NCBI GenBank assembly: GCA_001818495.1
Contig: MHKS01000005.1
Location: 250,038-314,037 of the forward strand
Direction: 5' to 3'
DNA length: 64,000 nucleotides
From: Candidatus Komeilibacteria bacterium RIFOXYD1_FULL_37_29
GTDB lineage: Bacteria; Patescibacteriota; Patescibacteriia; UBA1558; GWA2-36-10
The notes under the pieces were generated by a model. That model made no database searches. It was not told the DNA's origin and was given only the letters and a program-made list of their open reading frames with translations. This document shows, piece after piece, positions 19,429 through 33,114 of this stretch. Position numbers and translations under genes: made by a program. Each line of letters opens with the position of its first letter. Positions within the stretch are counted from its first letter, which is position 1.

Positions 19429-19596
19429 GGAGAGGTAGCAGATCCCGCGTAGCGGGACCCCGCTTTGCGGGGGTGGTTTAGAAATAGTAAGTTGATAATT
19501 TCATTTAGTTTTGGAGAGGTGGCAGCTCCCGCGCAGCGGGACCCCGCTTTGCGGGGGTGGTTTAGAAATAGTAAGTTGATAATTTCATTTAGTTTT
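19429..19596. repeat. two tandem 84-bp units, each beginning with the first 8-9 nt of the downstream tRNA-Ser and carrying twin GC-rich hairpins
   Basis: Units 19429-19512 and 19513-19596 (ggagaggt[a/g]gcag[a/c]tcccgcg[t/c]agcgggaccccgctttgcgggggtggtttagaaatagtaagttgataatttcatttagtttt). Three differences between units. Confidence 0.9.
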
Positions 19597-19686
19597 GGAG
19601 AGGTGCTAGAGTGGTTGAATAGGGTGCTCTCGAAAAGCACTAGTCCTGAAAGGGACTCGGGGGTTCAAATCCCTCCCTCTCCGCCA
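19597..19686 (+). tRNA. tRNA-Ser (anticodon CGA), class II with long variable arm, CCA encoded
   Basis: Hand-folded cloverleaf. Acceptor GGAGAGG/CCTCTCC; D stem CTA/TAG; anticodon stem GTGCT/AGCAC with loop CTCGAAA; variable-arm hairpin AGTCC/GGACT; T arm GGGGG-TTCAAAT-CCCTC; discriminator G plus CCA. Confidence 0.9.
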
Positions 19687-20051
19687 TCCTTCGCTAAAGC
19701 TACGGAATGACTAGCCATATGTTATATTATACTTACATTTTATTAAGCTCAAAATCTCATATTTTTTATTTTGGTTCAACGAATAATTTAAAAAATAGAT
19801 TGGAGCTGCATAATAGCGGCAAGGTAACATCAACTAAATCGCATATACCTTGGAAATTAGTTTGGTATTGTGTATTTGAAACGGAAAAACAGGCAAGAGA
19901 TTTTGAGCTTTATTTAAAAACAGGGTCAGGAAAATCTTTTGCTTATAAAAGACTTATTTCCGTGGCTTTAGAGAAGGATTTCAGGGAAGGGAGAATAGGT
20001 AGTCCGAAGCGGAAGCCTTAGCTTTTGCGAAGGATACCTCCCTCTCCGCCA
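19687..20051 (+). mobile_element. 365-bp GIY-YIG gene cassette bounded by 14-bp inverted repeats and a 15-bp duplication of the tRNA-Ser 3' end
   Basis: cctccctctccgcca occurs at 19672-19686 (tRNA 3' end) and again at 20037-20051. IR-L tccttcgctaaagc is at 19687-19700 and IR-R gcttttgcgaagga at 20021-20034 (1 mismatch). Confidence 0.55.
19707..20021 (+). CDS. small GIY-YIG (URI-domain) nuclease family protein
   Basis: YYTYILL...IFYFGSTNNLKNRLELHN...E...K matches the GIY...YIG...R...E layout of COG2827-type proteins. The start may instead be the ATG at 19719. Confidence 0.8.
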   Translation: MTSHMLYYTYILLSSKSHIFYFGSTNNLKNRLELHNSGKVTSTKSHIPWKLVWYCVFETEKQARDFELYLKTGSGKSFAYKRLISVALEKDFREGRIGSPKRKP

Positions 20052-20158
20052 GATTACCAAGTTTGAACCCAAGCAAAATAAGGGTTTTGTGCTATTGAAA
20101 AGCCGGTGTCCGAATAAGGTGCTGATTTTTTAAAATCCTTATCAAATGAGTAAATTTT

Positions 20159-20167
20159 TGGTAAAAT
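20159..20167 (+). promoter_or_regulatory. extended -10 promoter element (tggtaaaat) upstream of mod
   Basis: A TGn-TAAAAT element 24 nt upstream of the ATG at 20191. The same TGnTAnAAT style recurs at other operon starts in this window. Confidence 0.4.
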
Positions 20168-20190
20168 AGAGTTAATAAGAATAGAATTAT

Positions 20191-22020
20191 ATGTCTAAAA
20201 AAATTGATTACGACAACTGGTCAAAAGATGAGATAATCAAGGAGATTAGGCGAATCAAAGAAACTACATACGGACTTGTGTGGCATCGCGACTTACCTGA
20301 GGAAAAAATTGATATTCTTATAAACCCAGATGCTCGGACTCCAAATGAAATGTTCCCTAACGAAATGGCGGGCAAGCCATTTCCAGTTTTGAAAGAGGCA
20401 AAAACAAAAACAATTGAGACTGATAAAAATAAGCCGACAAATATTTTGATTGAGGGTGATAATTATCATTCTCTTGCCGTTTTGAATTTTACTCATCAAG
20501 AAGCAATTGATTTGATTTACATTGATCCGCCTTACAATACTGGCCACAACGATTTTGTTTACAATGATAAAATTAAAAGCGGTTATGTTGTTAAAGATGA
20601 TCCATTTAGGCATAGTAAATGGATTTCTTTCATGGAAAAAAGGTTAAAACTCGCAAAAAATTTATTGAAATCGTCGGGTGTTATTTTTATTAGTATTGAC
20701 GACAATGAATTTGCTCCATTAAAAATGCTGTGTGACGAGATTTTTGATGAAAGTAATTTCATCTCTATGTTGTCAATTGAAAATAATCCTAAGGGACGGA
20801 AAAACTCCGATTTTATATCTATTTGTAATGATTATTGTCTTATATACGCTAAAGACAAAGGTAAAAGTTATTTTGTTGAAAATATTCCCAAACAAGCTGA
20901 CGACTTAACGATTGATGATAATGGAGACTATGTACACAATAGCGGCAAACGGGTCCTTGTTGGAGAAAATAAATTTAATCCGCTTGTAGAAGATTTTGAA
21001 TCAGCTAAGCATTATAGTGTTTATTACAATCAGACTGATAATAAAATTAAAATAGAGGTGGAAAAAAATATTCACGAGGCAAACAAAGATTTATTAAAAA
21101 ACGGATATAAAAGATACTATTCTTATTTTGGAGACAGATTTGTCTTGAATACTTATACAAAATCAAAAATCATAGAGCTTTTCGAAGATGAGGCTCTCGA
21201 ATTCAAAAATGGGAGTATATATGAAAAAAATTTCAGCACAACAATTAGACTAAAAAGTCTTGTTATCAATAAAAAATATGAGGCAGTAATAAATAATGAA
21301 AAAGCAGAATATCAAATAGATGTTAAAACGACTTCAGCGAAGACTGAATTAAAGGATATTTTCAACACTGACCAAATTCCATTTGATAACCCCAAGAATA
21401 TTGGTTTGATAAAATTATTGGTAACATTATTTGAAAATAAATCAATAACTATTTTAGATTTTTTTGCAGGATCGGGAACGACCGGGCATGCAGTCCTTGG
21501 TCAAAATAAAGAAGATGGAGGAAATCGACAATTTATTCTGTGCACGAATAATGAAAATAATATATGCACTGATATCTGCTATCCCCGTCTTGGAAAAGTT
21601 ATAAAGGGATATAAAAATTCAAGAAATGAAAAAATTGATGGTTTGGGTGGAAACCTGAGATATTTTACTGCTTATGACTTTGTAGAAGCTAAGGAAACAG
21701 ATAGAAACAAAAGAAAACTAGTAAACCAATCAACAGAAATGCTTTGCATTAAGGAAAATGCTTTTGAGCTTGTGCAAGAAGTTGAAGATTATAAAATCTT
21801 CAAGAATCATGATAAATATTTGGGAATTATTTTTCATGAAGATTCTATATCGGACTATGTCAAAGCAATAAAAAAGATAAAAGGACACTTTAATACTTAT
21901 ACATTTTCAATGACGGATGATCCTCACAAAGAGGAATTTACTGATGTTGCGGACAAAGTAACTCTTTGTGCAATTCCAGAAATGATTTTGAAAGTATATC
22001 ATGAGATTTTCAAGGAATAA
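20191..22020 (+). CDS. mod: Type III restriction-modification DNA methyltransferase (Mod, beta-class N6A/N4C)
   Basis: 609 aa. Catalytic IDPPYNTG sits near the N-terminus (nt 20524-20535) and the SAM-binding FFAGSGTTGHAV near the C-terminus, with a variable middle region (TRD). Followed directly by a res-like helicase-nuclease gene. Confidence 0.85.
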   Translation: MSKKIDYDNWSKDEIIKEIRRIKETTYGLVWHRDLPEEKIDILINPDARTPNEMFPNEMAGKPFPVLKEAKTKTIETDKNKPTNILIEGDNYHSLAVLNFTHQEAIDLIYIDPPYNTGHNDFVYNDKIKSGYVVKDDPFRHSKWISFMEKRLKLAKNLLKSSGVIFISIDDNEFAPLKMLCDEIFDESNFISMLSIENNPKGRKNSDFISICNDYCLIYAKDKGKSYFVENIPKQADDLTIDDNGDYVHNSGKRVLVGENKFNPLVEDFESAKHYSVYYNQTDNKIKIEVEKNIHEANKDLLKNGYKRYYSYFGDRFVLNTYTKSKIIELFEDEALEFKNGSIYEKNFSTTIRLKSLVINKKYEAVINNEKAEYQIDVKTTSAKTELKDIFNTDQIPFDNPKNIGLIKLLVTLFENKSITILDFFAGSGTTGHAVLGQNKEDGGNRQFILCTNNENNICTDICYPRLGKVIKGYKNSRNEKIDGLGGNLRYFTAYDFVEAKETDRNKRKLVNQSTEMLCIKENAFELVQEVEDYKIFKNHDKYLGIIFHEDSISDYVKAIKKIKGHFNTYTFSMTDDPHKEEFTDVADKVTLCAIPEMILKVYHEIFKE

Positions 22021-22024
22021 TTAT

Positions 22025-24262
22025 ATGTCATGGATTAATTTTAAAAATTATCAAGAAACTGCAATCGATGAAATACGCGACAAGATTAATGCCCTGCTCA
22101 AAAAAGAGGGTAATAGACTTTGCGTATTCAAAGCTCCGACTGGTTCGGGGAAAACTTTAATGATGGCGGAATGGATGATGAGGTTTTGTGACCCATATTC
22201 GCGAATTGATGGGAAAACTTTTTCTTTTGTATGGATAGCAGTAAATAAATTACATGATCAAAGCCATGACAGTTTAAAAAAGTTTTATGAGCTCAAAGGA
22301 GCGGGGCTTCGTTGTTCATATTTTCACGAACTTGAGGATAGAAAAATAAAACAGAACGAGATTTTATTTTTGAATTGGGCAAGTATCAATAATGAAGACA
22401 AGATTATTGTTCGCGCGAATGAAAGAGATAATAATCTCTCAACAATAATTGATCGGACCAAAGATGCCAGTCGGACAATTATTTTGATTATCGACGAAAG
22501 CCACCATACCGCAAAAAGTAAAAATTCAAAGGCTTTAATAAAAAATATTGACCCTAAAATTACGATCGAGGTTTCTGCTACACCAGAAATTTTTGATTTT
22601 GATGAGCGGGTAACCATTGATATTGAGGATGTACGAAGCGAGGAAATGATAAAGAAAGAAATTGTAGTGAACCCTGGCTTCAAAAATTACACAGTTGATC
22701 CAAAAAAGAACGATCAAACAGCAGACGAATTAATCTTGAAGTCTGCTTTGCAAAAAAGGATTGATTTGCGAAAAAAATTAGAAAAAGATGGTTCAAATGT
22801 CAATCCCTTATTACTTATTCAATTACCGGATACAAAAAAAGGAGTTCCTGATAAAAAAGAGGAGATTGAAACACTTCTTGCTAAATTTGGCTATACAACA
22901 AAAAATGGAAAGTTGGCTGTCTATCTTTCTGAAAAAGATAACAAAATAAATCTTGCTAATATTGAGAAAAATGAAAACGAAGTGGAGGTAATGATGTTCA
23001 AGCAAGCGATTGCACTTGGTTGGGATTGTCCAAGAGCTACAATTCTTGTGCTTTTCCGTCAATGGAAAGATGAAACGATAACATTCTCAATCCAAACATT
23101 GGGAAGAATCATGCGTATGCCTGAGCAAAAACATTATAAAGATCAAGAGTTGAATATTGCTTATCTTTATACTAGTTTACAAGACATTAATACTCGTATT
23201 TTGAAAGGTGCTTCGTCGGGAATAAAATCTCTTACGAGTTATCGCAATGAGAAATATAAAAATATTGACCTAATTTCATATCACTCAAAACGATTCCGTG
23301 AGGAAACTCGTTTGTCTTCTGATTTTGTGAAAATTTTTATCGAAGCCGCTAAAAAAACAAATTTAAAAGATGTTTCGCTAAAAGTCGGGATTGTGAAAAC
23401 AACAATGATCAAAGATGGACGCGTGGAAAATGCGGATAAAGAAATAACAAAGATTGAAAGTGATACTTTTTCTATACCCAAAACAGAGACGGAGCTGCAA
23501 TATACTTTTGATATGTTTGTGCTTGATAATCTTGATCCGTTTGAACATGAAGCCCGTTCTATAAAACGCATAAACGATTCAATTTATACTTTCTTTGGCG
23601 CACGACGCAAAGAAGATGAATGGCCTAAAATACAAGCCACGATACTTTCGTATGAAAAGAATCGCCAAGCTGTAATTGATGCTATTAATCTAGCAAAAGA
23701 TTTATATAAAACCGAAGTTGGAAAAGGCAAAAAAGAACTGATACAAAATGATGAGCCGTGGAATGTGCCAGAAGCTATTAATTTTGATCCGTCATTTGTA
23801 GAGCAAAATTATAAAAAATCTATAATGCAACCATATTACGCTCGTTCTCGGGATGGAGAAAACGGACGATTGTTTGAGGACAGTGAAATTGAAAATGATT
23901 TTATTAAATACCTAGAAAAAGCACAGAAAGTTGTTTGGTGGTTCAGAAATGGGAAACAAGACGGATCATTTTTTGCTGTCCCGCACATTGAACACGGACA
24001 AGAAAAGCCGTTTTATGTTGATTTTATAGTTATGATGAAAAATGGAACTGTTGGGCTTTTTGATACAAAATCAGGATATACTGCCGAACTAGCAAAATCT
24101 CGCTCTGATGGACTTGTAAAATATATTAATGAGCAGAAAAAGAAAAAAATTACTGGCGGAATTGTGAGATACGAAAAGAAAAGTTGGCTATATTTTACTA
24201 ACAAAGAATATAAATATAATCCGAATGATATAAAGGATTGGGAATTTTTGGATTTGAATTAA
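22025..24262 (+). CDS. res: Type III restriction enzyme Res subunit (SF2 helicase + PD-(D/E)xK nuclease)
   Basis: Helicase motifs FKAPTGSGKT, IIDESHH and QTLGRIMR. C-terminal nuclease-like FYVDFIV...GLFDTKSG. The ATG at 22025 has an aagga SD-like element; the alternative start at 22001 overlaps mod. Confidence 0.85.
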   Translation: MSWINFKNYQETAIDEIRDKINALLKKEGNRLCVFKAPTGSGKTLMMAEWMMRFCDPYSRIDGKTFSFVWIAVNKLHDQSHDSLKKFYELKGAGLRCSYFHELEDRKIKQNEILFLNWASINNEDKIIVRANERDNNLSTIIDRTKDASRTIILIIDESHHTAKSKNSKALIKNIDPKITIEVSATPEIFDFDERVTIDIEDVRSEEMIKKEIVVNPGFKNYTVDPKKNDQTADELILKSALQKRIDLRKKLEKDGSNVNPLLLIQLPDTKKGVPDKKEEIETLLAKFGYTTKNGKLAVYLSEKDNKINLANIEKNENEVEVMMFKQAIALGWDCPRATILVLFRQWKDETITFSIQTLGRIMRMPEQKHYKDQELNIAYLYTSLQDINTRILKGASSGIKSLTSYRNEKYKNIDLISYHSKRFREETRLSSDFVKIFIEAAKKTNLKDVSLKVGIVKTTMIKDGRVENADKEITKIESDTFSIPKTETELQYTFDMFVLDNLDPFEHEARSIKRINDSIYTFFGARRKEDEWPKIQATILSYEKNRQAVIDAINLAKDLYKTEVGKGKKELIQNDEPWNVPEAINFDPSFVEQNYKKSIMQPYYARSRDGENGRLFEDSEIENDFIKYLEKAQKVVWWFRNGKQDGSFFAVPHIEHGQEKPFYVDFIVMMKNGTVGLFDTKSGYTAELAKSRSDGLVKYINEQKKKKITGGIVRYEKKSWLYFTNKEYKYNPNDIKDWEFLDLN

Positions 24263-24265
24263 ATT

Positions 24266-25450
24266 ATGGCATTAGAATCAGAAAAATTGGAAGAAAAAAT
24301 AGTTGATAATTATTTTACTGATACTCTATATAGTAGTCGGGAATTTAAGGGTGGAGTAGGTAAATTTTTTACAATAGTATCTCAGGATGAAAATGATATC
24401 CCAAATGTAGTTGATGTTGAGCATTCGTATCCTATACGCAATAAAATAAAGACAACGCTGACATTTATCAAAAAAGAAAACGAAATTACAGCCATTTCCT
24501 TTAAGCGTTTTAAATATTATAAAAAAGAACATTGGGTTGAACAACCAGAAGAACAGATTACTTTTTCATACAGTCTTTTTAAAAAAATTATTGGGTATTT
24601 ACAGTTACTATCAGAATTAAATTTGTCGGCTATTAGTGAGCGAAGAATTGCTTTAGCCGATGACACATTACCGAATATTGACGATGAAACAAAAAAGAAG
24701 ATTAAAACATTGCTTTTACGCAAAGATGGGCAAAAAATTATTGAGGAATTAATAAATAGCGGAATAATTACATCAACCGATATTGTAAATATCGGGTATC
24801 GAAAAAAACAACTTGATGTTTTTGAGAAGCTCCTGACACAACCCGATTATTTTGCAACCTATATAACTGAAAGTAAAATTACAGATACTCGTCATGAGTC
24901 TGTTTGGCAACATTTCTTCCATTCTAATGATTGGATTTTTGGATATGGACTAGATTATCGCTTTCTTGGCATCCTGCAAAAAGAAGCTCATATTTCAAAT
25001 ACAGACGTCGCAGGAAAAGGGGCTGTTATAAATGATTTTCTACTCGGGTGCAATAAATTCACCGTTTTGGTTGAATTAAAAAAACACGACACACCATTAT
25101 TTGGAAAAGACAAAAACCGGTCAAACTCTTGGACACTTTCAGATGATTTAATATCTGGTCTATCTCAAATATTAGAGCAAAAAGCTAGTTGGCAGGTTTC
25201 GGCCGAGACAAATGCAAGTGGAAATTTTGACGATAAGGGTAATTTGATAAAACAAAAAACTATCGATCCAAAAAGTATCTTAGTTATCGGATCAACAAAG
25301 CAATTTGATGGTGATGATAAAGAAAATCAAATTAAAGCAAAAACCTTTGAACTTTTTAGACGAGATTCAAGAAATATAGAAATTCTTACTTATGACGAAC
25401 TGTATGAGAGAGCGAAGTTTATTGTTGAACATAAACAGAAAGACAACTAG
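24266..25450 (+). CDS. DUF4263 / Shedu (SduA)-like PD-(D/E)xK nuclease-domain protein
   Basis: 394 aa. The C-terminal half reads WQHFFHSNDWIFGYGLDY...VINDFLLGC..FTVLVELKKHDTPLF...ILVIG...FELFRRDSRNIEILTYDELYERAKF, the layout I associate with DUF4263. Starts 4 nt after the res stop. Confidence 0.6.
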   Translation: MALESEKLEEKIVDNYFTDTLYSSREFKGGVGKFFTIVSQDENDIPNVVDVEHSYPIRNKIKTTLTFIKKENEITAISFKRFKYYKKEHWVEQPEEQITFSYSLFKKIIGYLQLLSELNLSAISERRIALADDTLPNIDDETKKKIKTLLLRKDGQKIIEELINSGIITSTDIVNIGYRKKQLDVFEKLLTQPDYFATYITESKITDTRHESVWQHFFHSNDWIFGYGLDYRFLGILQKEAHISNTDVAGKGAVINDFLLGCNKFTVLVELKKHDTPLFGKDKNRSNSWTLSDDLISGLSQILEQKASWQVSAETNASGNFDDKGNLIKQKTIDPKSILVIGSTKQFDGDDKENQIKAKTFELFRRDSRNIEILTYDELYERAKFIVEHKQKDN

Positions 25451-25793
25451 GTTTAAATAGAATAATCCACCTCATTTTTGCTCTTATCTGATTTTAGCTT
25501 CGGTGTCTCAAACCATTCTGGATGAACCTTGAACATAGCCCTTAATTCGCGTATACTTTTATCAATATCCTTAAATTTGAACCACTTTTTTGGTTCAAAC
25601 TTCGGGACATCGCCACCGCCACTCGATTCGCATTTTGCTTCGCAAAAAGCTCACTCGTGATCTACGGTGCTAAAGCACCTTCGACCATTCTAATTCTAGA
25701 ATCGAGTGTATTGAGCGAGCGTAGCGAGTCGAAAGGCACGCGCTATCGTGCTAGCATAAGTGTATTAAAAAATTTCTATATAGTTATTAAAAT

Positions 25794-26387
25794 ATGGATC
25801 AACAAACAATCAATACATACAACAGGATGTCACAAGAGTATGATGATGAAACAGCTGATTTTTGGGAGCGATTTCCTCGAACATTTCTTGATAAATTTAT
25901 TAAGCTATCCGGTAATAAAATACTTGATGTTGGGAGCGGACCAGGTAGAGATGGTTTGATACTTCAACAGGCCGGTAAAAATGTTGTCTGTGTGGATGCT
26001 TCTGCAGCAATGGTGAAATTGTCTTCAGACAGAGGTTTAAACTCTATAGTAGCCAGTTTCGACAATTTACCATTTGAAAATAATTCATTTGACGGCGTAT
26101 GGTCATATACTGCTCTTTTACATATTCCCAAAAAATCTATCGATACCCCTCTTCAAGAGATTTTTCGTATTATCAAACCTTCAGGTATTTTTGCTCTTGG
26201 TCTGATTGAAGGGGACACAGAAGGATACAAAGAAAGCTCTGAAGTGACTATGCCTCGTTGGTTTAGTTTCTATCAGAAAGACGAAGTTGAAAATTTATGC
26301 CAAAAGCACGGATTTGAGCTGGTTTACTTTGAGACTTTTAAACCAGGGTCCAAGCCCTATTTGAATTTTATTTTTCGAAAAATATAA
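25794..26387 (+). CDS. class I SAM-dependent methyltransferase
   Basis: 197 aa with motif I ILDVGSGPGRDG and post-I/II motifs (VVCVDAS, FDGVWSYTALLHI). Confidence 0.8.
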   Translation: MDQQTINTYNRMSQEYDDETADFWERFPRTFLDKFIKLSGNKILDVGSGPGRDGLILQQAGKNVVCVDASAAMVKLSSDRGLNSIVASFDNLPFENNSFDGVWSYTALLHIPKKSIDTPLQEIFRIIKPSGIFALGLIEGDTEGYKESSEVTMPRWFSFYQKDEVENLCQKHGFELVYFETFKPGSKPYLNFIFRKI

Positions 26388-26416
26388 TACTACTAGAACA
26401 TTTTTATCTATCTCAA

Positions 26417-26666
26417 TTTTCACTGTCTTTTCAGGCAGTTTTTTGGTATAATCAAAGCATTAATTAATAAAAATATTATGATTGACGAAGAAATAAAGCA
26501 AATTATTCAGGAAAATAAGGACACTTTGGCTAATATTGATAAAAGGATTGGTCGGATTGAGAAAAATTTTATTTGGAGTTCAATTTTTGGTTTTATAAAG
26601 ATTGTTATTATTGTAGCACCGATTGTTTTTGGTATTATTTATTTTACGCCATTTTTGAAAGATTTA
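26417..26666 (+). repeat. left copy of a ~250-bp direct repeat (promoter + 5' part of a small TM-protein gene)
   Basis: Aligns with 33400-33649 at a fixed offset of 6,983 nt. I count about 9 mismatches, and the first ~104 nt are identical. Contains tggtataat (26444-26452). Confidence 0.9.
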
Positions 26667-26690
26667 AATAAATTGGGTATTATTACATAA
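26478..26690 (+). CDS. small TM protein, truncated paralog of the 33461-33811 gene
   Basis: 70 aa. MIDEEIKQIIQENK..NIDKRIGRIEKNFIWSSIFGF.KIVII is nearly identical to the N-terminus of the downstream paralog and diverges after FTPFLKD. Confidence 0.6.
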   Translation: MIDEEIKQIIQENKDTLANIDKRIGRIEKNFIWSSIFGFIKIVIIVAPIVFGIIYFTPFLKDLNKLGIIT

Positions 26691-26707
26691 TTAAGAAATG
26701 GTAGTAT

Positions 26708-28426
26708 ATGAAAAAGTCAAAAGTCATATTAGGGATTACTGCCTTTAATCATGATTCTTCGGCGTGCTTAATTTATCAAGGTAGAGTAATTGCATTTTGT
26801 GAGGAGGAAAGATTCAATGGCATAAAACATACCGGAGATTTTCCGATAAAATCAATTTTATTTTGTTTAGAAAAAGCTGGTTTGTCATTAAATGATGTGA
26901 CTGATGTAGCTTTTTATTTTAATATTAAAAAATGTTTATTGAGTTATATAAAGAACAATAATCCACTCTATTATATTATTCATCCATCTTTATTTAAGAG
27001 GAAAAGATTTTATTATGAAATTATTTGGTTATTTAGTTTTATAAACAAAATTAATTCAATTAAAAAACTCCTTAATAATTATAAGATAAAGATTACTTAT
27101 GTAGATCATCATATGGCGCACGCTTGGTATGGGTATTTTTCTTCAAATTTTAAAAATTGCACGGTAGTTTCTAATGACAGCGTAGGCGAGAGTGTGAGTA
27201 GTTTAGCCGTAAAGATACAGAGAGAAGATAAAAAAATTATTTTTGGTAAGACATTCAGTCAAACAGACCCTCACTCTATTGGGTATTTGTATGGTGCTAT
27301 AACTGAATTTTTAGGATTCAAAAGAGGTCAAGACGAAGGAAAGGTTATGGCTATGGCGGCTTTAGGGAAAGATAAATATGTAAAATATTTTGATGACTTG
27401 ATTAGATATTTACCTAATGGGGAATTTAGAATAAGTAAGGAGTTGATTTCCTTACGTAATTTTCAGCCAAAATCACAAAGATTAAGCAATGATTTTTTAA
27501 AAAAATTTGGATATTATCGTCAACCCCAAGAACCATTTATCCAAAAGCATTATGATATTGCTTATGCAATACAAGGGGTAACGGAAAAAATTTTATATCA
27601 CCAATTAAAATATATTAATGATGATAATATAGTCATTACTGGTGGTATTGCTCAAAATAGTGTAGCCAACGGGAAACTCAACAATTTTTTTTATAAAAGA
27701 AATATATTTATTCCTCCGATTCCTAATGATGCCGGGTGTGGTATTGGCGCGGCGCTTTCTTTATATTATAAGTATTATGAAGATTTACCAGAGTTTGTGG
27801 ATACTGCGTTTTTAGGCCCAGAATTTTCTGATCATAAAATCATTAAAACATTAGAAAATAATAAAATAAATTTTAAAATTATAAAAAATCAGACGGAATT
27901 CATTATTAATGAGCTTTTGAAAAATAAGATTATCGCTATATATAGAAATGAGATGGAGTGTGGTCCTAGGGCATTAGGTAATAGGAGTATAATAGCCAAT
28001 CCAATTGATCCGGCGATGAAGAATTACATCAATGAAAAAATAAAACACCGTGAATTTTTTCAGCCATACGGCGGGTTGATTATTGATAAAAATGTTAAAG
28101 AAGTATTTGATTATAAGAATAAAAATATTTCCGGACCATATATGTCTTTTGTTTATCCAATTAAAGATAAATGGTTAAAAATGTTTCCATCTTTGGTTCA
28201 TTTTGATAAAACTTCTAGAATTCAAATAATAAAGAAGGAACAAAATTTTTTATATAGTCTCTTGGAAGAATTTTATAAAAAAACAGGTGTCCCCGTAATT
28301 ATAAATACTTCCCTTAATTTAAGAGGGCAGCCTATGGCAAGAAGCCATCAAGATGCTTTAAACACATTTTATAATTCGGGGATTCATTATATTTTATTTA
28401 ATAACAGTATTCTAGTTTCAAAATGA
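26708..28426 (+). CDS. NodU/CmcH/TobZ-family O-carbamoyltransferase
   Basis: 572 aa. N-terminal ILGITAFNHDSSACLIYQGRVIAFCEEERFNGIKH, VDHHMAHAWYGYF, and C-terminal domain ECGPRALGNRSIIANP. Confidence 0.85.
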   Translation: MKKSKVILGITAFNHDSSACLIYQGRVIAFCEEERFNGIKHTGDFPIKSILFCLEKAGLSLNDVTDVAFYFNIKKCLLSYIKNNNPLYYIIHPSLFKRKRFYYEIIWLFSFINKINSIKKLLNNYKIKITYVDHHMAHAWYGYFSSNFKNCTVVSNDSVGESVSSLAVKIQREDKKIIFGKTFSQTDPHSIGYLYGAITEFLGFKRGQDEGKVMAMAALGKDKYVKYFDDLIRYLPNGEFRISKELISLRNFQPKSQRLSNDFLKKFGYYRQPQEPFIQKHYDIAYAIQGVTEKILYHQLKYINDDNIVITGGIAQNSVANGKLNNFFYKRNIFIPPIPNDAGCGIGAALSLYYKYYEDLPEFVDTAFLGPEFSDHKIIKTLENNKINFKIIKNQTEFIINELLKNKIIAIYRNEMECGPRALGNRSIIANPIDPAMKNYINEKIKHREFFQPYGGLIIDKNVKEVFDYKNKNISGPYMSFVYPIKDKWLKMFPSLVHFDKTSRIQIIKKEQNFLYSLLEEFYKKTGVPVIINTSLNLRGQPMARSHQDALNTFYNSGIHYILFNNSILVSK

Positions 28427-29247
28427 TTAAAGATTTTCAAAAGATAGAGTTTTTAAAATCACTTTACAGTGATAAAGACTTAATATCGTTTCGTGGCAAT
28501 TTTTTAAAAAATAATTCCAACCGTAAATTCTCATTAAGATCTTTTATTATTAAACTTTTGCCGATGCTAAAGGATAAAAAAATATTAGACATTGGTTGCG
28601 GAGACGGGTCATTCCTCAATAAATTACATACGGTATATCCTCAAAATAAATATTTTGGTTTGGATGTAGTAGATAATGCTAAATGCCATAAATTGAAATT
28701 TCTTGACTACAAAATTTATGATGGTAAATCCAGGGTTTATTATACGGAAAAATTTGATGTGATATTTTGTATGCACACTGTTTATCATATCGAAGATTTA
28801 TTCACTTTTTTTACAACGATGAAAGACTATTTAAAGCCCCATGGCATTATTATCATTACTACGAAGTCTAAATTGACTTTTCCTAAAATAGAATCAATCT
28901 TTTTAAAGATTGTCGGTAAGCTTGACTTAAAAAAATATTTAAAAATTAGCAAACACAGAGAGGAATCAAAATTTTGTTTGGAGAACGGATTAAACAGATT
29001 AAAAAAACACTTCGCTAGGCGGTCATTTAGTATAAATGAGTATGTTTTAGAAACGCAGGTTTTTGTTAATGACAAAAAAGATCTTTTGAAATATGTTTTT
29101 TCTACAAATAGATATAATATTTTGAAAGATACTTTAAACAAAAAAATTGTTGAAAAATATACAAAACTTTGGTTTGAAGAAATTGATAAAGATCAGATAT
29201 TCATTGATAAATATACGGAGGCTGTTTATTTAATAAAAAAATTATGA
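28423..29247 (+). CDS. class I SAM-dependent methyltransferase
   Basis: 274 aa with ILDIGCGDGSF motif I, YFGLDVV and FDVIFCMHTVYHIEDL. ATGA overlap with the carbamoyltransferase stop. Confidence 0.75.
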   Translation: MIKDFQKIEFLKSLYSDKDLISFRGNFLKNNSNRKFSLRSFIIKLLPMLKDKKILDIGCGDGSFLNKLHTVYPQNKYFGLDVVDNAKCHKLKFLDYKIYDGKSRVYYTEKFDVIFCMHTVYHIEDLFTFFTTMKDYLKPHGIIIITTKSKLTFPKIESIFLKIVGKLDLKKYLKISKHREESKFCLENGLNRLKKHFARRSFSINEYVLETQVFVNDKKDLLKYVFSTNRYNILKDTLNKKIVEKYTKLWFEEIDKDQIFIDKYTEAVYLIKKL

Positions 29248-30311
29248 AAATAGGTTATAGTTGCTGGGGATTTTTGGGTAACGGAATAAAGGATACACCG
29301 GATGGCGGGAGGAGTCACCGGTTGACTTTATTGAAAGAATTAATCCGTCAAGGAGTTGAAATAGTAATGTTGCAAAAGAATAGAGACCTCATTGAAGGCA
29401 ATCAAAGTTTTTCACGAAAGAATTTAATATTTAGTGGTGAGTTACCGGAAATAGATGCTCTATTTGTAGAATATAGATGGAAGATAGTAGGAAGGAATTA
29501 TAAGGTGAGAAAAAATAATCCAGCCTATACTCCGGATTTCGATAGACAGAGTGAATTAATTAATTTTTATAATAATAGAAATATTCCTATTATTATTTGG
29601 GATAAAGATCAGAAACTTGGTAAGAATGAAATAAAAGGCATTAAAAATTTGATTGTATTTGAACCTGCTTTAAAGCCAAGGTTTAATAGAAAAAGTTTAT
29701 TGTTTCCGATGGACAATCATAGAACAAAAATTGTCCTCAAATTGATAGGTAAGTATAAAAAAAATATTAAGAGCTCCAAGTTGTGTTACATTGGAAATCA
29801 ATATGAGAGAGATGGTAGTTTTAAAGAGTTTATTAATAAGCCAGCCAGTATGCTCGATACCAAAACACCAGTATTTGGTAATTGGAACAAATATCCAGAA
29901 AAGTATAAGCAAAATATGCAAAAATTTTCCAATGTTGAATTTAAAGGTAGGGTGCAGTTTAATAAAGTTAATAATATTTATAAAAAATCTTTTTCTACAG
30001 TTCTTATCGCGCCACGGAGATATTATATCACGGGTCATTTTACACAAAGATTATTTGAGGCAATGTGGGGCTTATGCATTCCTTTTACCCCGCAGCAATA
30101 TCATGGATGGCAGGGTTTAATAATAAAAGATTTTATAATTAGATCTGGCAAAGATTTAATAAATAAGATAAAAAAATTAGAAACAACGCCCGATTCAGAT
30201 ATAAGGAGAATGTTTGATAGACAGTTTGAGAAACTTAATTTATTTAATGCCAGTAAACAAGCCAGTATAATTATAAACGAAATCAATAATCATAATGGTA
30301 GACTCGGGTAA
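29244..30311 (+). CDS. hypothetical protein, possibly GT-B-fold (CgeB/DUF3880-like) glycosyltransferase
   Basis: 355 aa. The C-terminal half (YIGNQYERD...VEFKGRV...YKKSFSTVLIAPRRYYITGHFTQRLFEAMWGLCIPF) resembles the donor-binding half of GT-B enzymes. The assignment is by eye only. ATGA overlap with the upstream gene. Confidence 0.3.
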   Translation: MKIGYSCWGFLGNGIKDTPDGGRSHRLTLLKELIRQGVEIVMLQKNRDLIEGNQSFSRKNLIFSGELPEIDALFVEYRWKIVGRNYKVRKNNPAYTPDFDRQSELINFYNNRNIPIIIWDKDQKLGKNEIKGIKNLIVFEPALKPRFNRKSLLFPMDNHRTKIVLKLIGKYKKNIKSSKLCYIGNQYERDGSFKEFINKPASMLDTKTPVFGNWNKYPEKYKQNMQKFSNVEFKGRVQFNKVNNIYKKSFSTVLIAPRRYYITGHFTQRLFEAMWGLCIPFTPQQYHGWQGLIIKDFIIRSGKDLINKIKKLETTPDSDIRRMFDRQFEKLNLFNASKQASIIINEINNHNGRLG

Positions 30312-31074
30312 TAAAAATAAATCTTTAGAAATTGTAATTGATTCTAAACACTATATTAAAAAAAGATATTCTGATATCCAACGTTTTTTTTGTGAATTAA
30401 AATATCTTAAATATTTTAAAGATGAAGATATCAATGTTCCTTTTATATATAAATTTGATAAAATCCAAAAAACAATAATAATAGATAAAATAAAGGGGAA
30501 AATCGGCGATTCATTAAATAATAGAGACACAAAACTATGCATTGATGTGCTTGTCAAAATAATTTTTATTTTTGGTTTGGAAAAGAAAAATAATAATGAA
30601 ATTGATAGGTATATTTCAAAAGTCAGGTCAAATATAATATGGTGGTGTGAAAATAATAATTATATAGTAGAAAAAGAAAAATTAAATATTTTACTTCAAA
30701 AGTTAAGAAAAGTGTGTTATATATCTTTATTCAAAGATGCCAAACCATCTAATTGGATTTTTCAAAAAGATAAAATATACGCAATAGACTTTGATTATGT
30801 AAAAAAATCATTTTTTTTAGCAGATTTAGCACAACTTTTAAGTTATATTTCATTAAGGAAAAAAATAAGTTATATTTTCTTTGTAAATTATTATCTAAAG
30901 CAAATATTCCCAAAAATGAAGGATTATGATAAATTTTATATACCTTTTAAATTAGCGCTTGTTAATTCCAACATTGCTTCTGAACTTCACAGAGAGAATT
31001 TAGGAGCCTATGTAAAAAGGGGTTTTGCCAAACAAAACAGGTTTATTTTGAGTGAATTTAAGATAATATTATAA
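30295..31074 (+). CDS. protein-kinase-like fold kinase (APH/Bud32/LPS-kinase-like)
   Basis: 259 aa. Catalytic-loop-like FKDAKPSNWIF followed by IYAIDFDYV (DFG-equivalent). Overlaps the upstream gene by 17 nt. Confidence 0.5.
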   Translation: MVDSGNKNKSLEIVIDSKHYIKKRYSDIQRFFCELKYLKYFKDEDINVPFIYKFDKIQKTIIIDKIKGKIGDSLNNRDTKLCIDVLVKIIFIFGLEKKNNNEIDRYISKVRSNIIWWCENNNYIVEKEKLNILLQKLRKVCYISLFKDAKPSNWIFQKDKIYAIDFDYVKKSFFLADLAQLLSYISLRKKISYIFFVNYYLKQIFPKMKDYDKFYIPFKLALVNSNIASELHRENLGAYVKRGFAKQNRFILSEFKIIL

Positions 31075-31955
31075 TGTCAATATCAATAACCGCCAAATCA
31101 GCTAATGAAGCATTCATTAAAATAGCTGATAAATTGTATAATAATCCGGAATATGTTTCTAGTCCTCGAAGCTGGGAAACAAGGGAGTTATTAGGGGCTT
31201 TTATTGTTATCAACAATCCCTATGATCGTTTTATAAATAATGTTCATAGGAAGATTTCTTTAAAGTATCTTATTGGTGAATGGTTATGGTATGAGCGAGG
31301 ATCCAATTCTTTAAATGAAATTAATTATTATGCAAAATTTTGGAGCAGTATTTCGGATGATAAAATAACTGCCAATTCAGCTTATGGTCATAGAATTTTA
31401 GGGATCAATAAGTTCGTGATTATTAATCAATGGAAGTGGGCCAAACGGCAAATAATAAAAGATAAGGAAACAAGGAGAGCCATCATTTTTATTGGATTGC
31501 CAAGTGATATGAAAAACGAAACGAAAGATTTTCCTTGCACTATGTCACTCCAGTTTTTAATAAGAAATAATGAGTTACATTTAATTTGCAATATGAGGAG
31601 CAATGATTTAGTATTGGGTTTTACTTATGATGTAGCTACCTTTACTTTATATCAAGAAAAAATGTTGTTGGAGTTGAAAAAATATTATCCAAAATTAAAG
31701 ATAGGTAAATATTTTCATATGGTAGGCAGTTTACACGTATATAAGAAAAACTATGAGATGATAAAAAAAGTGATAAATGATCAGGACAATAATTTGAAAA
31801 TTACCATGCCTCGCATGGGTGATTTAAAAGAAATAAAAAAACTCCAGTATAACGAGAGTATTATAAGAGAAAATAAAAATAAAAAGTTTAAAAAAATTGA
31901 AGATAGATTCTGTATCTGGTGTCAGAATATTTTATTAAATAAAATTAAATACTAA
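31074..31955 (+). CDS. thymidylate synthase (ThyA) superfamily enzyme with Asp at the Asn177-equivalent position; candidate deoxycytidylate/cytidylate C5-hydroxymethylase or methylase
   Basis: Hand alignment to E. coli ThyA. GEWLWYERG ~ ELLWFLQG; TRRAIIF ~ SRRIIVSAW; FPCTMSLQF ~ APCHAFFQF (Cys codon 31536-31538); MRSNDLVLGFTYDVATF ~ QRSCDVFLGLPFNIASY (Asp codon 31629-31631 replaces Asn177); GSLHVY ~ GDTHLY. TAATG overlap with the upstream gene. Confidence 0.7.
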   Translation: MSISITAKSANEAFIKIADKLYNNPEYVSSPRSWETRELLGAFIVINNPYDRFINNVHRKISLKYLIGEWLWYERGSNSLNEINYYAKFWSSISDDKITANSAYGHRILGINKFVIINQWKWAKRQIIKDKETRRAIIFIGLPSDMKNETKDFPCTMSLQFLIRNNELHLICNMRSNDLVLGFTYDVATFTLYQEKMLLELKKYYPKLKIGKYFHMVGSLHVYKKNYEMIKKVINDQDNNLKITMPRMGDLKEIKKLQYNESIIRENKNKKFKKIEDRFCIWCQNILLNKIKY

Positions 31956-31956
31956 A

Positions 31957-32628: not shown

Positions 32629-33114
32629 ATGTTTTTTAATTTTATGTTTTTTATACTTTACCCCGGCTAAATCAAAGAGTTTTTTAGAAACGATAAAATT
32701 ATTCGCATCTTTGTCTGATCTATCATCTTGATAGATTATATTTTTTATGCCGCTTTGGATAATAATTTTTGCACACTCATTGCAGGGGAAGAGTAAACAG
32801 TAAAGTTTTGCATTTTCGGCTGATTGATTAGTATTTAAAATGGCATTTACTTCAGCGTGAACAACATACGGATATTTTGTATTTAAGATATTTTTTTTGT
32901 TATGCCCGTAATTATTACTCCAAGAAAAATGCCCTTCCTTAATACCTCTAGGCCAACCGTTGTAGCCAACTCCTAAAACAACATTATTTTTATCAACCAC
33001 GACAGCTCCGGTTTGAGTTGATGGGTCTTTTGATCTCTGAGCTATAACTTGAGCCATTAGCATAAATGTTTCATCCCACGATAAATAGTTTTTTCTAGCT
33101 TTTATATTATCCAT
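32620..33114 (-). CDS. dCMP deaminase (ComEB/Cd family)
   Basis: 164 aa. Zinc motifs VHAEVNAI and PCNECAKII, with N-terminal SWDETFMLMAQVIAQRSKDPSTQTGAVVV. Convergent with the operon, with a 9-nt 3' overlap. Confidence 0.9.
   Translation of the reverse strand: MDNIKARKNYLSWDETFMLMAQVIAQRSKDPSTQTGAVVVDKNNVVLGVGYNGWPRGIKEGHFSWSNNYGHNKKNILNTKYPYVVHAEVNAILNTNQSAENAKLYCLLFPCNECAKIIIQSGIKNIIYQDDRSDKDANNFIVSKKLFDLAGVKYKKHKIKKHLF

Follow-up and report, generated by a model that had tools for sequence, protein, structure and literature searches.

The 3' ends of tRNA genes are classical att sites, where islands and prophages that carry tyrosine integrases insert and bring a direct repeat that regenerates the tRNA. 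A different kind of occupant is seen in the GIY-YIG genes of the phage T4 Seg/Mob group (including SegB in the T4 tRNA gene cluster) and of the I-TevI type, each a single selfish gene at a conserved host site; the Seg/Mob genes behave as free-standing homing endonuclease genes, for which occupied and empty sites are found and the host gene is preserved. To our knowledge GIY-YIG enzymes act as hydrolytic nucleases and do not carry out strand transfer, homing by break repair yields neither inverted palindromic ends nor a 14-nt target duplication, and genes for homing endonucleases lack both inverted-repeat ends and covarying palindromes. Among other GIY-YIG proteins, SLX1 cuts branched and stem-loop DNA, and the UPF0213/COG2827 proteins form a large family for which we know of no assigned role and of no report of a mobile context. 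The IS200/IS605 elements, which move by single-strand 'peel and paste', use an HUH/Y1 transposase; their ends are non-inverted and on one strand, and they leave the target unduplicated. Casposons are Cas1-integrase transposons of 8–20 kb that encode Cas1 and PolB, have terminal inverted repeats and a 14–15-bp duplication, and target a tRNA 3' end with a segment of the T-psi-C loop taking part in recognition (PMC5137440). In CPR bacteria, small GIY-YIG ORFs have been described in non-intron insertions of rRNA genes (PMC11270868).

The locus described here, in a 64-kb stretch of a Komeilibacteria contig (the window), is a 365-bp insert behind an intact tRNA-Ser gene, and its sole gene encodes a 100-aa GIY-YIG nuclease (Table 1). 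Like the tRNA-targeting islands and prophages it occupies a tRNA 3' end and leaves the tRNA restored by a direct repeat, whereas it has no integrase, is 0.35 kb in size and carries a repeat copied from the tRNA at hand in place of a fixed att core. With the free-standing GIY-YIG genes it shares a single, apparently selfish gene at a conserved host site, the occurrence of occupied and empty sites, and the preservation of the host gene. Unlike the I-TevI-type enzymes, however, its protein has a single Pfam domain and consists of a catalytic core of ~85 aa and a tail, with no Zn-finger, NUMOD or HTH module, and the cassette is bounded by inverted palindromic ends and a target duplication of 14 nt. 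Terminal inverted repeats, a 14–15-bp duplication and the tRNA 3' end as target are held in common with casposons (PMC5137440), but at ~350 bp the cassette encodes only the GIY-YIG protein and has no room for Cas1 or PolB, and its duplication lies wholly inside the tRNA whereas that of A. boonei overlaps the tRNA by 5 bp (PMC5137440). The resemblance to IS200/IS605 lies in very small size, subterminal imperfect palindromes with conserved mismatches, and short pairing between the element and its flank or cleavage site; the cassette differs in having ends that are inverted copies, a 14-nt duplication, and a hydrolytic nuclease in place of an HUH Y1 TnpA. The rRNA-gene ORFs, which we compare by description, come from the same radiation and also lie in stable-RNA genes outside introns, although that study concerns rRNA genes only, does not use the term tRNA, and gives no end structures or duplications for these ORFs (PMC11270868).

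The insert behind the tRNA-Ser gene

The last 15 nt of the tRNA gene, CCTCCCTCTCCGCCA, occur exactly twice in the window (19672–19686 and 20037–20051), compared with a chance expectation of 0.07 matches when up to two mismatches are allowed. This confirms the recurrence that the initial annotation had noticed, and the tRNA calls by ARAGORN and Rfam agree with it. The direct repeat can be extended to 17 of 18 positions (ATCCCTCC.. versus ATACCTCC..). Inverted repeats are likewise present at the positions first given for them, TCCTTCGCTAAAGC (19687–19700) and GCTTTTGCGAAGGA (20021–20034) being complementary at 13 of 14 positions and extendable to 20 nt at 90% (19686–19705 with 20016–20035). The description of the ends as 14-bp inverted repeats holds only in part, as the repeats are real but the ends are more elaborate, consisting of imperfect palindromes with a third copy (R1) inside the ORF. 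The only sizeable ORF between the repeats is the GIY-YIG gene, as had been proposed; an in-frame ATG upstream, at 19707, gives an alternative product of 104 aa. An Rfam 15 scan of the cassette region has the tRNA as its sole match.

Table 1. Features of the cassette and its surroundings, in window coordinates
Feature	Position	Strand	Basis or description
Separate small insertion at the tRNA 5' end, two tandem 84-nt units	19429-19596	+	Repeat analysis
tRNA-Ser(CGA), intact, CCA encoded; target gene	19597-19686	+	ARAGORN; Rfam tRNA, 52.1 bits, E=8e-10
Direct repeat copy 1	19672-19686	+	T-stem 3' strand (4/5 nt), acceptor 3' strand, G73, CCA; within functional tRNA
Left-end imperfect palindrome (LE)	19683-19711	+	Alignment of 40 cassettes; pair counts
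GIY-YIG nuclease gene, 100 aa + stop	19719-20021	+	Pfam PF01541; family consensus and deposited protein P0001 both start at 19719
R1, internal inverted copy of left end, inside ORF	19956-19979	+	Encodes ..ISVALEKD..
Right-end imperfect palindrome (R2/RE)	19998-20038	+	GGTA(G)TCCGAAGC, variable loop, GCGAAGGATACC
Direct repeat copy 2, displaced tRNA 3' end	20037-20051	+	Exact repeat of copy 1
Conserved right flank, outside cassette	20052-20175	+	blastn, 82-97% identity to L081-L092 over 35-143 nt

Reading inwards from the tRNA, LE is composed of G73-C74-C75-A76 of the tRNA and TCCTTCGC, a loop TAAA, GCTACGGA, a bulged A and then T-G-A-C. Its core (19686–19708) is the left terminal inverted repeat; the mismatches T.C and C.T are conserved, and in the window the partner of C74 is an A, which is a further mismatch. 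R1 matches the reverse complement of LE at 20 of 24 positions. At the other side, R2/RE encodes the C-terminal GSPKRKP, contains the stop codon (20019–20021), and has as its last two bases the first CC of repeat copy 2. Each end palindrome takes in 2–4 nt of the duplicated tRNA sequence.

Beyond repeat copy 2 comes the sequence that at uninterrupted loci lies directly 3' of the tRNA (in L090, of the last repeat copy). Twelve metagenomic loci (L081–L092) have ...CCTCCCTCTCCGCCA followed at once by GATTACCAAG, the right flank of the window, and in 11 of the 12 CCTCCCTCTCCGCCA closes an intact tRNA-Ser. At the remaining locus, L090, it is the last of three tandem tRNA-3'-end repeats downstream of an intact tRNA-Ser(GCT), and further insertions are present there that lack an ORF and have 18-nt repeats of that tRNA 3' end. 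The conserved right flank recurs after several different tRNA-Ser genes of other metagenomes. Because such uninterrupted junctions exist we regard the cassette as an insertion, and the earlier prediction that its precise loss would leave an intact tRNA is borne out by the uninterrupted tRNA-Ser and window right flank of these loci. The tRNA-Ser 3' end with this flank is occupied in the window and in the near-identical strain L093, which has the same cassette at the same site, and is unoccupied in L081–L092, these being analogous and not orthologous sites. An orthologous empty allele was not found in related species, which lack the tRNA; the empty sites that were found are the analogous junctions.

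The synteny around homologues of the 599-aa left-flank gene is conserved in related species, and there the tRNA, the cassette and the neighbouring island are missing together. Because the tRNA-Ser too is absent from the orthologous locus, the whole stretch of ~19.43–33.4 kb is extra, and the proposal that the cassette forms the left edge of the accessory region has to be abandoned. No integrase domain was found in the cassette or in ten ORFs scanned between 20.2 and 32.6 kb, and the tRNA 3' end does not recur a third time at the right (far) edge of the island. Both the window cassette and that at L071 have a tRNA on one side and a type III R-M island on the other; a general link to R-M islands is not supported, the type III Mod/Res genes being common only to L071. 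The interval from tRNA to ORF is free of promoter-like sites, and the terminator scan meets its first terminator-like site, a hairpin with a T run at 20104–20124, beyond repeat copy 2. Counts of 4/20 versus 9/52 lend no support to a −10 element belonging to the cassette where no tRNA lies upstream.

On the other side of the tRNA is the separate small insertion listed in Table 1. Each of its 84-nt units starts with the first 9 nt of the tRNA (GGAGAGGTR) and continues with twin GC hairpins and an AT-rich tail, and the units are missing from L093, where the tRNA directly follows ..GGAGTAG. Similar twin hairpins adjoin a 5'-side GIY-YIG ORF in L085, and a second GIY-YIG family, to which L011, L026 and L085 belong, is seen at tRNA 5' ends with duplications of 9–24 nt.

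Related cassettes in other CPR genomes

The family is patchily distributed, with 466 matches among 185,579 species genomes. At 53 of 80 related loci in other CPR genomes a same-strand tRNA lies upstream, ending ~25–100 nt before the ORF (median 42 nt), and several tRNA species are involved, as had been anticipated for GIY-YIG genes abutting tRNA 3' ends elsewhere; the search for the inverted-repeat sequences outside the window was also positive, the end sequences being conserved family-wide. The upstream tRNAs are Gln (21), Ser (17), Asn (10), Trp, Tyr and others, at least eight tRNA species in all, and mostly have a G73 discriminator (Gln, Ser, Asn, Trp). At 39 of the 53 loci an exact repeat, at least 13 nt long, of the 3' end of the locus's own tRNA closely follows the ORF, compared with 3 of 436 control windows of the same loci. 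The duplication is 13–20 nt long and most commonly 14 nt, which corresponds to the 3' strands of T-stem and acceptor together with the discriminator and C74. In eight variants of tRNA-Gln(CTG) the repeat matches its own acceptor-stem variant each time. The segment that is duplicated comes from the target and varies from tRNA to tRNA. Adjacency to tRNAs, duplication of the locus's own tRNA, conserved ends and uninterrupted junctions together support the initial idea of a small mobile or homing-type cassette at the tRNA 3' end.

There are exceptions to this pattern. Mismatched or chimeric repeats are present at L013, L058, L065 and L075, and at about 12 loci a tRNA is missing on the left and the tRNA piece to the right does not match, an arrangement which is not predicted by a simple target-duplication model. 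An Rfam scan of the left flanks of 11 other loci gave no match. For the left flanks that lack a tRNA, L029 and L040 suggest homologous coding sequence on the reverse strand, and the remaining loci give this no support.

A genome usually has one or two copies, and most tRNAs are cassette-free. Among the incomplete genomes surveyed, two MAGs have two copies each (L026/L071 and L066/L073); L066 and L073 lie at two tRNA-Gln genes of one MAG and are each other's best match at 85%. The ORF and both ends always occur together in the 40 aligned cassettes. The copy at L071 is degenerate, with stop codons, yet it retains a perfect 16-nt repeat, and solo left ends are seen at L052 and L012. About 12 of the 80 loci are at contig ends. 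In the protein clustering the tRNA types are intermixed and clustering by type is not resolved, so that a separate ancient lineage for each tRNA type finds no support. We read the degenerate copy, the solo left ends, the paired copies at L066/L073 and this intermixing as signs of mobility and decay. Divergence between cassettes of different species is ancient, with synonymous sites saturated, and no near-identical copies were seen in unrelated genomes; neither were relatives found in viral contigs, so that a phage vector is not indicated. The cassettes may have been resident vertically over a long time, or domesticated, rather than having spread horizontally in recent times. We found no description of this cassette in the full-text searchable literature, where this widespread family of tiny tRNA-end insertions in CPR bacteria seems to have gone undescribed.

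The cassette ends and the encoded nuclease

Both ends of the cassette are conserved imperfect palindromes with compensatory base changes. Their anatomy is conserved in the 40 aligned cassettes, and their covariation score is 0.21–0.24, compared with at most 0.09 for slid controls, and is reached by none of 500 shuffles. In LE an internal T-N-G-C/T pairs with N73-C74-N75-A76 of the tRNA, and both the discriminator and the first base after C74 covary with bases internal to the element: the N75:N' pairs are AU (15), CG (14), UA (9) and UG (1), with none unpaired, and those of the discriminator with column 85 are GC (31), AU (3) and GU (2). For R1, 89–90% of cells pair family-wide, with compensatory changes at synonymous codon positions. 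The covarying pairs of R2/RE are CG 30/AU 9, GC 31/AU 8, CG 30/UA 6/AU 2 and AT 29/GC 6/CG 5, and its G.A and A.G mismatches are invariant (40/40). As G.T and A.C mismatches are equally frequent (31 and 31), this comparison has no asymmetry that would identify the strand and so distinguish an RNA from a DNA structure, and single-sequence DNA folding of the window palindromes is no better than that of shuffled sequence. The ends may function as hairpins, RNA structures or duplex palindromes.

The Pfam GIY-YIG match of the protein is strong (E=1.5e-16; 60.9 bits against a cut-off of 22.6). The catalytic residues of GIY-YIG enzymes are the Tyr of GIY, the Tyr of YIG, an Arg and a metal-binding Glu; Y6, Y17, R27, H31 and E63 are invariant in 24 family members, and by analogy with I-TevI numbering we take these as consistent with the catalytic motifs. 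An AlphaFold2 model (pLDDT 85.8) predicts the GIY-YIG beta-beta-alpha-beta-alpha core (strands 3–10, 16–21 and 45–53; helices 24–32 and 56–67), and past the core only one long helix and a disordered tail. All Foldseek matches to the model are GIY-YIG proteins, the best being UPF0213 BH0048 and SLX1, with BH0048, Slx1 and HIGLE filling ranks 1–12; the Slx1 match has 30–37% identity over ~70 residues at an rmsd of ~2 Å, while I-TevI is a marginal structural match only (E ~2). A sequence search of the PDB gave 1ZG2 at E=0.002, and NCBIfam has no family match. Judged from sequence and model, the closest relatives of the cassette protein are SLX1/UPF0213, structure-specific nucleases, and not I-TevI. 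It differs from SLX1 in having neither a RING/PHD domain nor an SLX4 partner, and from SLX1 and the UPF0213 (YhbQ/BH0048-type) proteins in a family-specific C-terminal tail encoded by the element's own palindromes. The ability of SLX1 to cut branched and stem-loop DNA fits the palindromic ends of the cassette. The protein is under strong purifying selection, with a median pN of 0.17 against a pS of 0.75 (saturated) and a dN/dS of ~0.13 in unsaturated pairs.

Alternative explanations and a proposed mechanism

On balance we think it probable that 19685/19687–20036 is one copy of a family of selfish insertion cassettes of ~350–450 bp, found in CPR bacteria (Patescibacteria), whose GIY-YIG nuclease targets tRNA 3' ends. 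The best of the other explanations is a classical free-standing homing endonuclease gene that introduces a double-strand break into cassette-free alleles at its own tRNA locus and is copied in through flank homology, the tRNA fragment being carried along after one founding event per tRNA type. A single nuclease ORF at a highly conserved host site, in occupied and unoccupied states, is what such a gene would present, and the aberrant repeats at L013, L058, L065 and L075 and the foreign tRNA pieces on the right suggest that the right copy can travel with the cassette. We nevertheless consider this explanation unlikely: the repeat tracks each locus's own tRNA despite acceptor-stem differences within an isoacceptor, as in the eight Gln(CTG) variants; at least eight tRNA species are used, and clustering of the proteins does not keep the types apart; an I-TevI-like DNA-binding domain is lacking from the protein; and the cassette has inverted-repeat ends and covarying palindromes.

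It is less probable still that an old insertion has been kept for its function as a tRNA-linked gene. The left hairpin would then sequester NCCA, by the same logic as the UGGN:NCCA pairing of T-boxes, and the nuclease would serve to process tRNA 3' ends, to control tRNA quality, or to protect tRNA genes by cutting integrating DNA that carries copies of tRNA 3' ends (attP). The very strong purifying selection with saturated synonymous sites, the low copy number of one or two per genome, the exact maintenance of the downstream copy despite the age of the cassettes, the pairing of T-N-G-C/T to N73-C74-N75-A76 with its discriminator covariation, and the location of the window and L071 cassettes, with a tRNA on one side and a type III R-M island on the other, can all be read in this way. 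However, the distribution is patchy (466 matches among 185,579 species genomes), some copies are degenerate and solo ends occur, the cassettes occupy many kinds of tRNA gene and leave most tRNAs free, and the strand asymmetry expected of an RNA structure is absent. Mobility would still be compatible with a domesticated gene.

Movement in trans by a site-specific recombinase, either an island integrase or an attC/dif-like system, with the repeat as att core and the GIY-YIG gene as cargo of a non-autonomous cassette, seems very improbable to us. This proposal would require the att core to pre-exist on the element, yet the repeat varies with tRNA species and with species-level variant; the ten ORFs scanned at 20.2–32.6 kb have no integrase domain, the far end of the island has no third core copy, and the right palindrome is embedded in an ORF that always occurs together with both ends. 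It has in its favour the classical att location at a tRNA 3' end, the island beside the cassette at the window tRNA-Ser, the ORF-less insertions of L090 with their 18-nt repeats of the same tRNA 3' end, and the likeness of palindromes with conserved mismatches to folded recombination sites. A chance repeat or decayed second tRNA as origin of copy 2, for which there is only the general fact that short repeats arise by chance, can practically be dismissed given the expectation of 0.07, the same architecture at 39/53 loci versus 3/436 controls, a copy that is consistently 13–16 nt long and adjoins the conserved right end ..GGATA, and nothing tRNA-like before copy 2 (ARAGORN, Rfam).

To return to the selfish insertion cassette, each copy consists of a left imperfect palindrome, a stand-alone SLX1/UPF0213-type gene of ~100 aa and a right imperfect palindrome overlapping the gene end, and lies immediately after C74–A76 of a tRNA gene, flanked by a duplication of 13–16 nt that comprises the 3' strands of T-stem and acceptor, the discriminator and C74. 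As the tRNA 3' end is duplicated, an intact tRNA is always kept upstream. We propose the following mechanism. The ORF would probably be expressed by read-through from the tRNA promoter and its transcript released by tRNA 3' processing. The nuclease may recognize the T-arm/acceptor part of the tRNA gene, as duplex or as folded single strand, and be positioned by the palindromic ends through pairing of 2–4 nt to N73-C74(-C75-A76) and C61-C62. Cuts ~14 nt apart would be followed by host repair synthesis that copies the cassette from a donor into the break, giving rise to the duplication, and occupied sites would no longer be contiguous targets. The 14-nt stagger and the pasting step are conjectural, because GIY-YIG enzymes have no known strand-transfer activity and no activity is known for the cassette protein.

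By the criteria for insertion sequences, terminal inverted repeats are present and the target duplication is mostly 14 nt, while no known transposase class (DDE, HUH, Ser/Tyr recombinase or Cas1) is encoded, the sole ORF being the GIY-YIG gene with no NCBIfam match. More tentatively, and with distinctly less confidence than in the selfish insertion cassette, we suggest a new class of prokaryotic transposable element in which a ~100-aa SLX1-like GIY-YIG nuclease is the sole protein and folding palindromic ends choose the cuts by pairing over 2–4 nt with N73-C74-C75-A76 and C61-C62, so that the 14-nt duplication equals the 3' strand of the acceptor and T-arm; with the mirror-image GIY-YIG family at tRNA 5' ends it might form a guild of minimal tRNA-unit parasites in CPR bacteria.

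If the GIY-YIG protein drives insertion, the cassette would be the smallest autonomous DNA element with a defined target known to us and the first among IS-like elements to rely on a GIY-YIG nuclease, and an enzyme that cuts at a fixed distance from the T-arm could serve as a reagent. The finding is relevant to the recognition of tRNA genes, which are classical landing pads for islands and phages, as the duplicated segment is set by tRNA architecture (T-loop to C74) and not by sequence. For CPR genomes, in which hundreds of 'GIY-YIG nuclease family proteins' of this kind are filed as ordinary genes, the cassettes matter for annotation, and also for assembly because several copies lie at contig ends. 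A role for the protein in driving insertion would furthermore provide a function for part of the large UPF0213/COG2827 family.

The cassette and its target

Re-analysis of the sequence recovers every detail of the cassette reported in the initial annotation, namely the repeat of the tRNA 3' end, the inverted repeats and the lone GIY-YIG gene, and its reading as a very small mobile element targeting a tRNA 3' end is correct and part of a family-wide phenomenon. For the 15-nt repeat 0.07 matches are expected by chance with two mismatches allowed; the inverted repeats directly inside its two copies are complementary at 13 of 14 positions, and the GIY-YIG ORF is the only real ORF between them. A deposited protein from Candidatus Komeilibacteria RIFOXYC1_FULL_37_11 (CPR/Patescibacteria) matches its product at 100% identity, and the product has hundreds of relatives (72-88% identity) in many CPR phyla.

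Features of the cassette, its surroundings and related loci
Feature	Locus	Position	Strand	Remarks
Single 3578-aa ORF	window	77-10813		fills first 10.7 kb
Two tandem 84-nt units	window	19429-19596		directly upstream of tRNA-Ser
Extra block as a whole	window	~19430-33400		tRNA-Ser, cassette, defence/modification genes; absent from syntenic loci
tRNA-Ser(CGA)	window	19597-19686	+	ARAGORN and Rfam; sole tRNA gene of 64-kb window
Inverted repeats, extended form	window	19686-19705 with 20016-20035		20 nt, 90%
GIY-YIG ORF	window	19719-20021		in-frame ATG upstream at 19707; PF01541, E=1.5e-16
Direct repeat, copy 2	window	20037-20051		CCTCCCTCTCCGCCA, last 15 nt of tRNA-Ser(CGA); no third occurrence in window
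Type III R-M Mod	window	20191-22020
Type III R-M Res	window	22001-24262
Shedu SduA	window	24266-25450
Second-family GIY-YIG ORF	L011	2426-2902
Second-family GIY-YIG ORF	L026	2623-2889
Second-family GIY-YIG ORF	L008	2723-2917
Second-family GIY-YIG ORF	L085	2993-3265
Second-family GIY-YIG ORF	L088	4439-4615
Second-family GIY-YIG ORF	L083	2-181

With one genome scanned for each species, 466 encoding loci emerged, the best 80 of which were analysed. GIY-YIG genes abutting tRNA 3' ends, proposed earlier as a check in related genomes, are common among them: 53 of the 80 have a same-strand tRNA before the ORF, the upstream sequence being sufficient to judge this in only about 70, with a median distance of 42 nt from tRNA end to ORF. 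These tRNAs are Gln (21), Ser (17) and Asn (10), plus Trp, Tyr and a few doubtful cases. Just past the ORF, 39 of the 53 loci carry an exact 13-20-nt copy of their own tRNA's 3' end (most commonly 14 nt), compared with 3 of 436 control windows of equal size from the same loci. The copy always begins at the first base of the T-stem 3' strand, spans the acceptor 3' strand and discriminator, and ends at C74 or sometimes A76. Because it tracks the local tRNA even when acceptor stems vary among species within one isoacceptor, the segment is a target-derived duplication and not a fixed attachment core. The downstream copy often retains C-CA, whereas the functional upstream tRNA reads C-AA, C-TA or C-CA before TCCTTC, which places the cassette termini at N-ATCC...GGATA.

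Further insights into the ends come from an alignment of 40 complete cassettes. The left-end palindrome (LE) is imperfect, [N73 C74] N A TCC(T)T(C)GC - TAAA - GC(T)A(C)GGA (A) T N' G C/T, with T.C and C.T mismatches that are invariant (40/40). The pair N75:N' is A-U in 15 cases, C-G in 14, U-A in 9 and never unpaired, and the tRNA discriminator covaries with its paired element-internal base (GC 31, AU 3, GU 2); N73-C74-N75-A76 thus finds its pairing partner in the internal T-N'-G-C/T, by the same logic as the UGGN:NCCA contact of T-boxes. Targets are almost exclusively G73 tRNAs, the element pairing with N73-C74. The right-end palindrome (R2), which overlaps the last codons and stop of the ORF, is a mirror image of LE, GGTA(G)TCCGAAGC - variable loop - GCG(A/T)AGGATACC, in which pairs covary and the G.A and A.G mismatches never change; the downstream repeat offers its first CC (C61, C62) for pairing with the outer GG of R2. 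A third copy (R1) inside the ORF encodes the conserved SVAL(A/E)KD and is complementary to LE across 22 nt, loop included, with compensatory changes at synonymous codon positions. Covariation scores are 0.21-0.24, against at most 0.09 in slid controls, and lie above all 500 shuffles. The palindromes show no strand asymmetry of mismatch types, and those of the window fold no better than shuffled sequence; the ends may work as duplex binding sites or in folded form, as DNA hairpins, cruciforms or RNA structures. The spacer from LE to ORF holds tandem repeats of ~27-30 nt in some loci (four in L036, 2871-3000; three in L054, 75-211; also L024 and L041), and in L030, L032 and L040 a recurrent ~40-nt insertion (..TATCCGTCGCTACTACGTAGCTATGGAATAG..) lies within the left palindrome.

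Insertion and the surrounding accessory region

The cassette is an insertion. When public metagenomes were scanned with the junction of repeat copy 2 and right flank, 12 loci (L081-L092) were found, 11 of them with an intact tRNA-Ser joined directly to GATTACCAAGTTTGAAC.., so that uninterrupted sites analogous to the window's do occur; in the twelfth, L090, the tRNA 3' end is repeated three times in tandem and the junction follows the final repeat. Since L082 (tRNA-Ser(CGA)) and L089 are 82-89% identical to window 20034-20175 and share no other sequence with it, exactly 365 bp, the cassette plus one repeat copy, set the window apart from the uninterrupted arrangement. A near-identical strain (L093; flanking protein 99% identical) has the same cassette in the same place. 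No orthologous empty site for the window's tRNA-Ser was found among syntenic relatives, which lack the tRNA too.

These more distant relatives (L094, L096, L097) keep the order YbeY-DAGK-FtsA-FtsZ-NrdR-590aa-187aa-117aa-PrfA-..-ComEC, without tRNA-Ser, cassette or the low-GC block at 20-33 kb. The joint absence indicates that the accessory region begins upstream of the tRNA, and not at the cassette, which had been taken as its left edge. Within the block, which holds type III Mod/Res, Shedu SduA, methyltransferases, a carbamoyltransferase and a ThyA-like gene, GC falls from ~0.39 to 0.27-0.33. The ten ORFs scanned between 20.2 and 32.6 kb gave no integrase domain, and a search at the right edge of window ~19430-33400 gave no third tRNA 3' end copy.

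In L081-L092, 35-143 nt after tRNA-Ser (window 20052-20175) are conserved at 82-97%, following tRNA-Ser of differing anticodon (CGA, GCT, GGA) on unrelated metagenome contigs, with LexA-like or different restriction-modification genes beyond; a family of defence islands landing at tRNA-Ser may have this stretch as its common arm. L090 (88-562) has tRNA-Ser(GCT), two ORF-less insertions of ~155-170 nt, each ending with the 18-nt repeat CGAATCCCTCCCTCTCCG as further small insertions duplicating the tRNA 3' end, and then the arm. L071 (1-3328) has type III Mod/Res, with 38-49% identity to those of the window, after a degenerate cassette at tRNA-Gln.

At the 5' end of the window's tRNA-Ser, each 84-nt unit consists of the tRNA's first 9 nt (GGAGAGGTR), twin GC hairpins (TCCCGCGTAGCGGGA, CCCCGCTTTGCGGGG) and an AT-rich tail. 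The arrangement resembles an ORF-less insertion of 75 nt, in two copies, that duplicated 9 nt of its target; L093 has neither unit. A second GIY-YIG family (~88 aa) mirrors the 3'-end cassette, its ORFs stopping within a few nt of a tRNA 5' end or reading into the tRNA. In L011 and L085 the tRNA-Ser 5' end supplies the codons for the C-terminal ..IHGEVA*, copies of the tRNA 5' end measure 12 nt in L026 (TGCGGGATCGTC, upstream of the ORF) and 24 nt in L085, and GIY-YIG genes flank the tRNA on both sides in L011, L026 and L008.

The nuclease, its proposed part in movement, and known systems

Across the family, the residues that fit the GIY-YIG catalytic motifs do not vary. In the AlphaFold2 model (pLDDT 85.8) the GIY-YIG core is followed by a single long C-terminal helix and a basic tail that is disordered, and neither this model nor structure comparison revealed a DNA-binding domain in the 100-aa protein. 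Among solved structures it comes closest to BH0048, an uncharacterised member of UPF0213, and to SLX1, a structure-specific nuclease (30-37% identity over ~70 residues); I-TevI matches only marginally. Between cassettes of different species median pS is 0.75 (saturated) and pN 0.17, with dN/dS ~0.13 in unsaturated pairs, so the gene is functional and old. Clustering at 50% reduces the tight family to a handful of representatives, and the larger surrounding set of ~80-125-aa relatives forms 495 clusters at E<=1e-10. As the window has no promoter-like site between tRNA and ORF, and its first terminator-like site lies past the downstream repeat, the tRNA promoter most likely drives the ORF, whose transcript would be freed by tRNA 3' processing.

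The 14 duplicated nt coincide exactly with the unbroken 3' strand of the acceptor/T-arm helix and two further bases, which suggests a target measured from the T-loop, by analogy with the casposon target at the tRNA 3' end and its T-loop-linked recognition (PMC5137440). The data show the insertion, the duplication, the conserved ends and the selection on the protein. Beyond them, we conjecture that the nuclease, aided by the palindromic ends, would cut the tRNA gene ~14 nt apart, at 60|61 and 74|75, and that both overhangs would prime repair synthesis copying a donor cassette, producing the duplication. Cutting and pasting are conjecture because, to our knowledge, no GIY-YIG enzyme carries out strand transfer.

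The chief alternative is ordinary homing, in which break repair installs the cassette and the tRNA piece on its right travels along. This alternative is favoured by loci with mismatched repeats and by ~12 loci without a left tRNA (L003, L004, L010, L012, L024, L029, L040, L047, L068, L072, L074), where the right-hand piece is foreign and unmatched to the left flank. These flanks have ~6 nt of tRNA 3' end and GTTC at a fixed -29 (-24 in true tRNAs); those of L010 and L015 have a fold resembling an acceptor-plus-T-arm minihelix, and L010 and L012 are 98-99% identical in the element and only ~79% in the 29-nt flank. The cassette could also have been domesticated, for a part in tRNA 3' end biology or in protecting tRNA genes from elements that integrate there.

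Several loci bear on movement and decay. One MAG has two copies at two tRNA-Gln genes that are mutual best matches (85%), and tRNA types are intermixed in protein clustering. The L071 cassette has in-frame stop codons yet a perfect 16-nt repeat; solo left ends occur in L052 and L012, and the order RE-14 nt-LE in L052 resembles a tandem or circle junction. Cassettes lie at contig ends in ~12 of 80 loci, and no relative was found in viral contigs. LOOT RNA scores above the Rfam gathering score in L024 (2670-2790, minus strand; 84 bits) and L047 (4611-4737, minus strand; 72 bits), and a group I intron match in L003 (1110-1323, plus strand; 49.4 bits, just under the gathering score of 50) adjoins another small GIY-YIG ORF (826-1089).

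The cassette shares single-gene economy with free-standing GIY-YIG homing endonucleases, inverted ends and a fixed duplication with insertion sequences, a 14-15-bp duplication at the tRNA T-arm with casposons, and palindromic, mismatch-bearing ends with IS200/IS605, and departs from each of these families in a defining respect. We found no published description of it in the literature searched, whose coverage stopped short of subscription journals; the nearest report concerns CPR rRNA genes with GIY-YIG ORFs in insertions that are not introns, and does not mention tRNA (PMC11270868). We rate the cassette as a nuclease-borne selfish insertion, which would become a new class should the nuclease prove to be what mobilises it.
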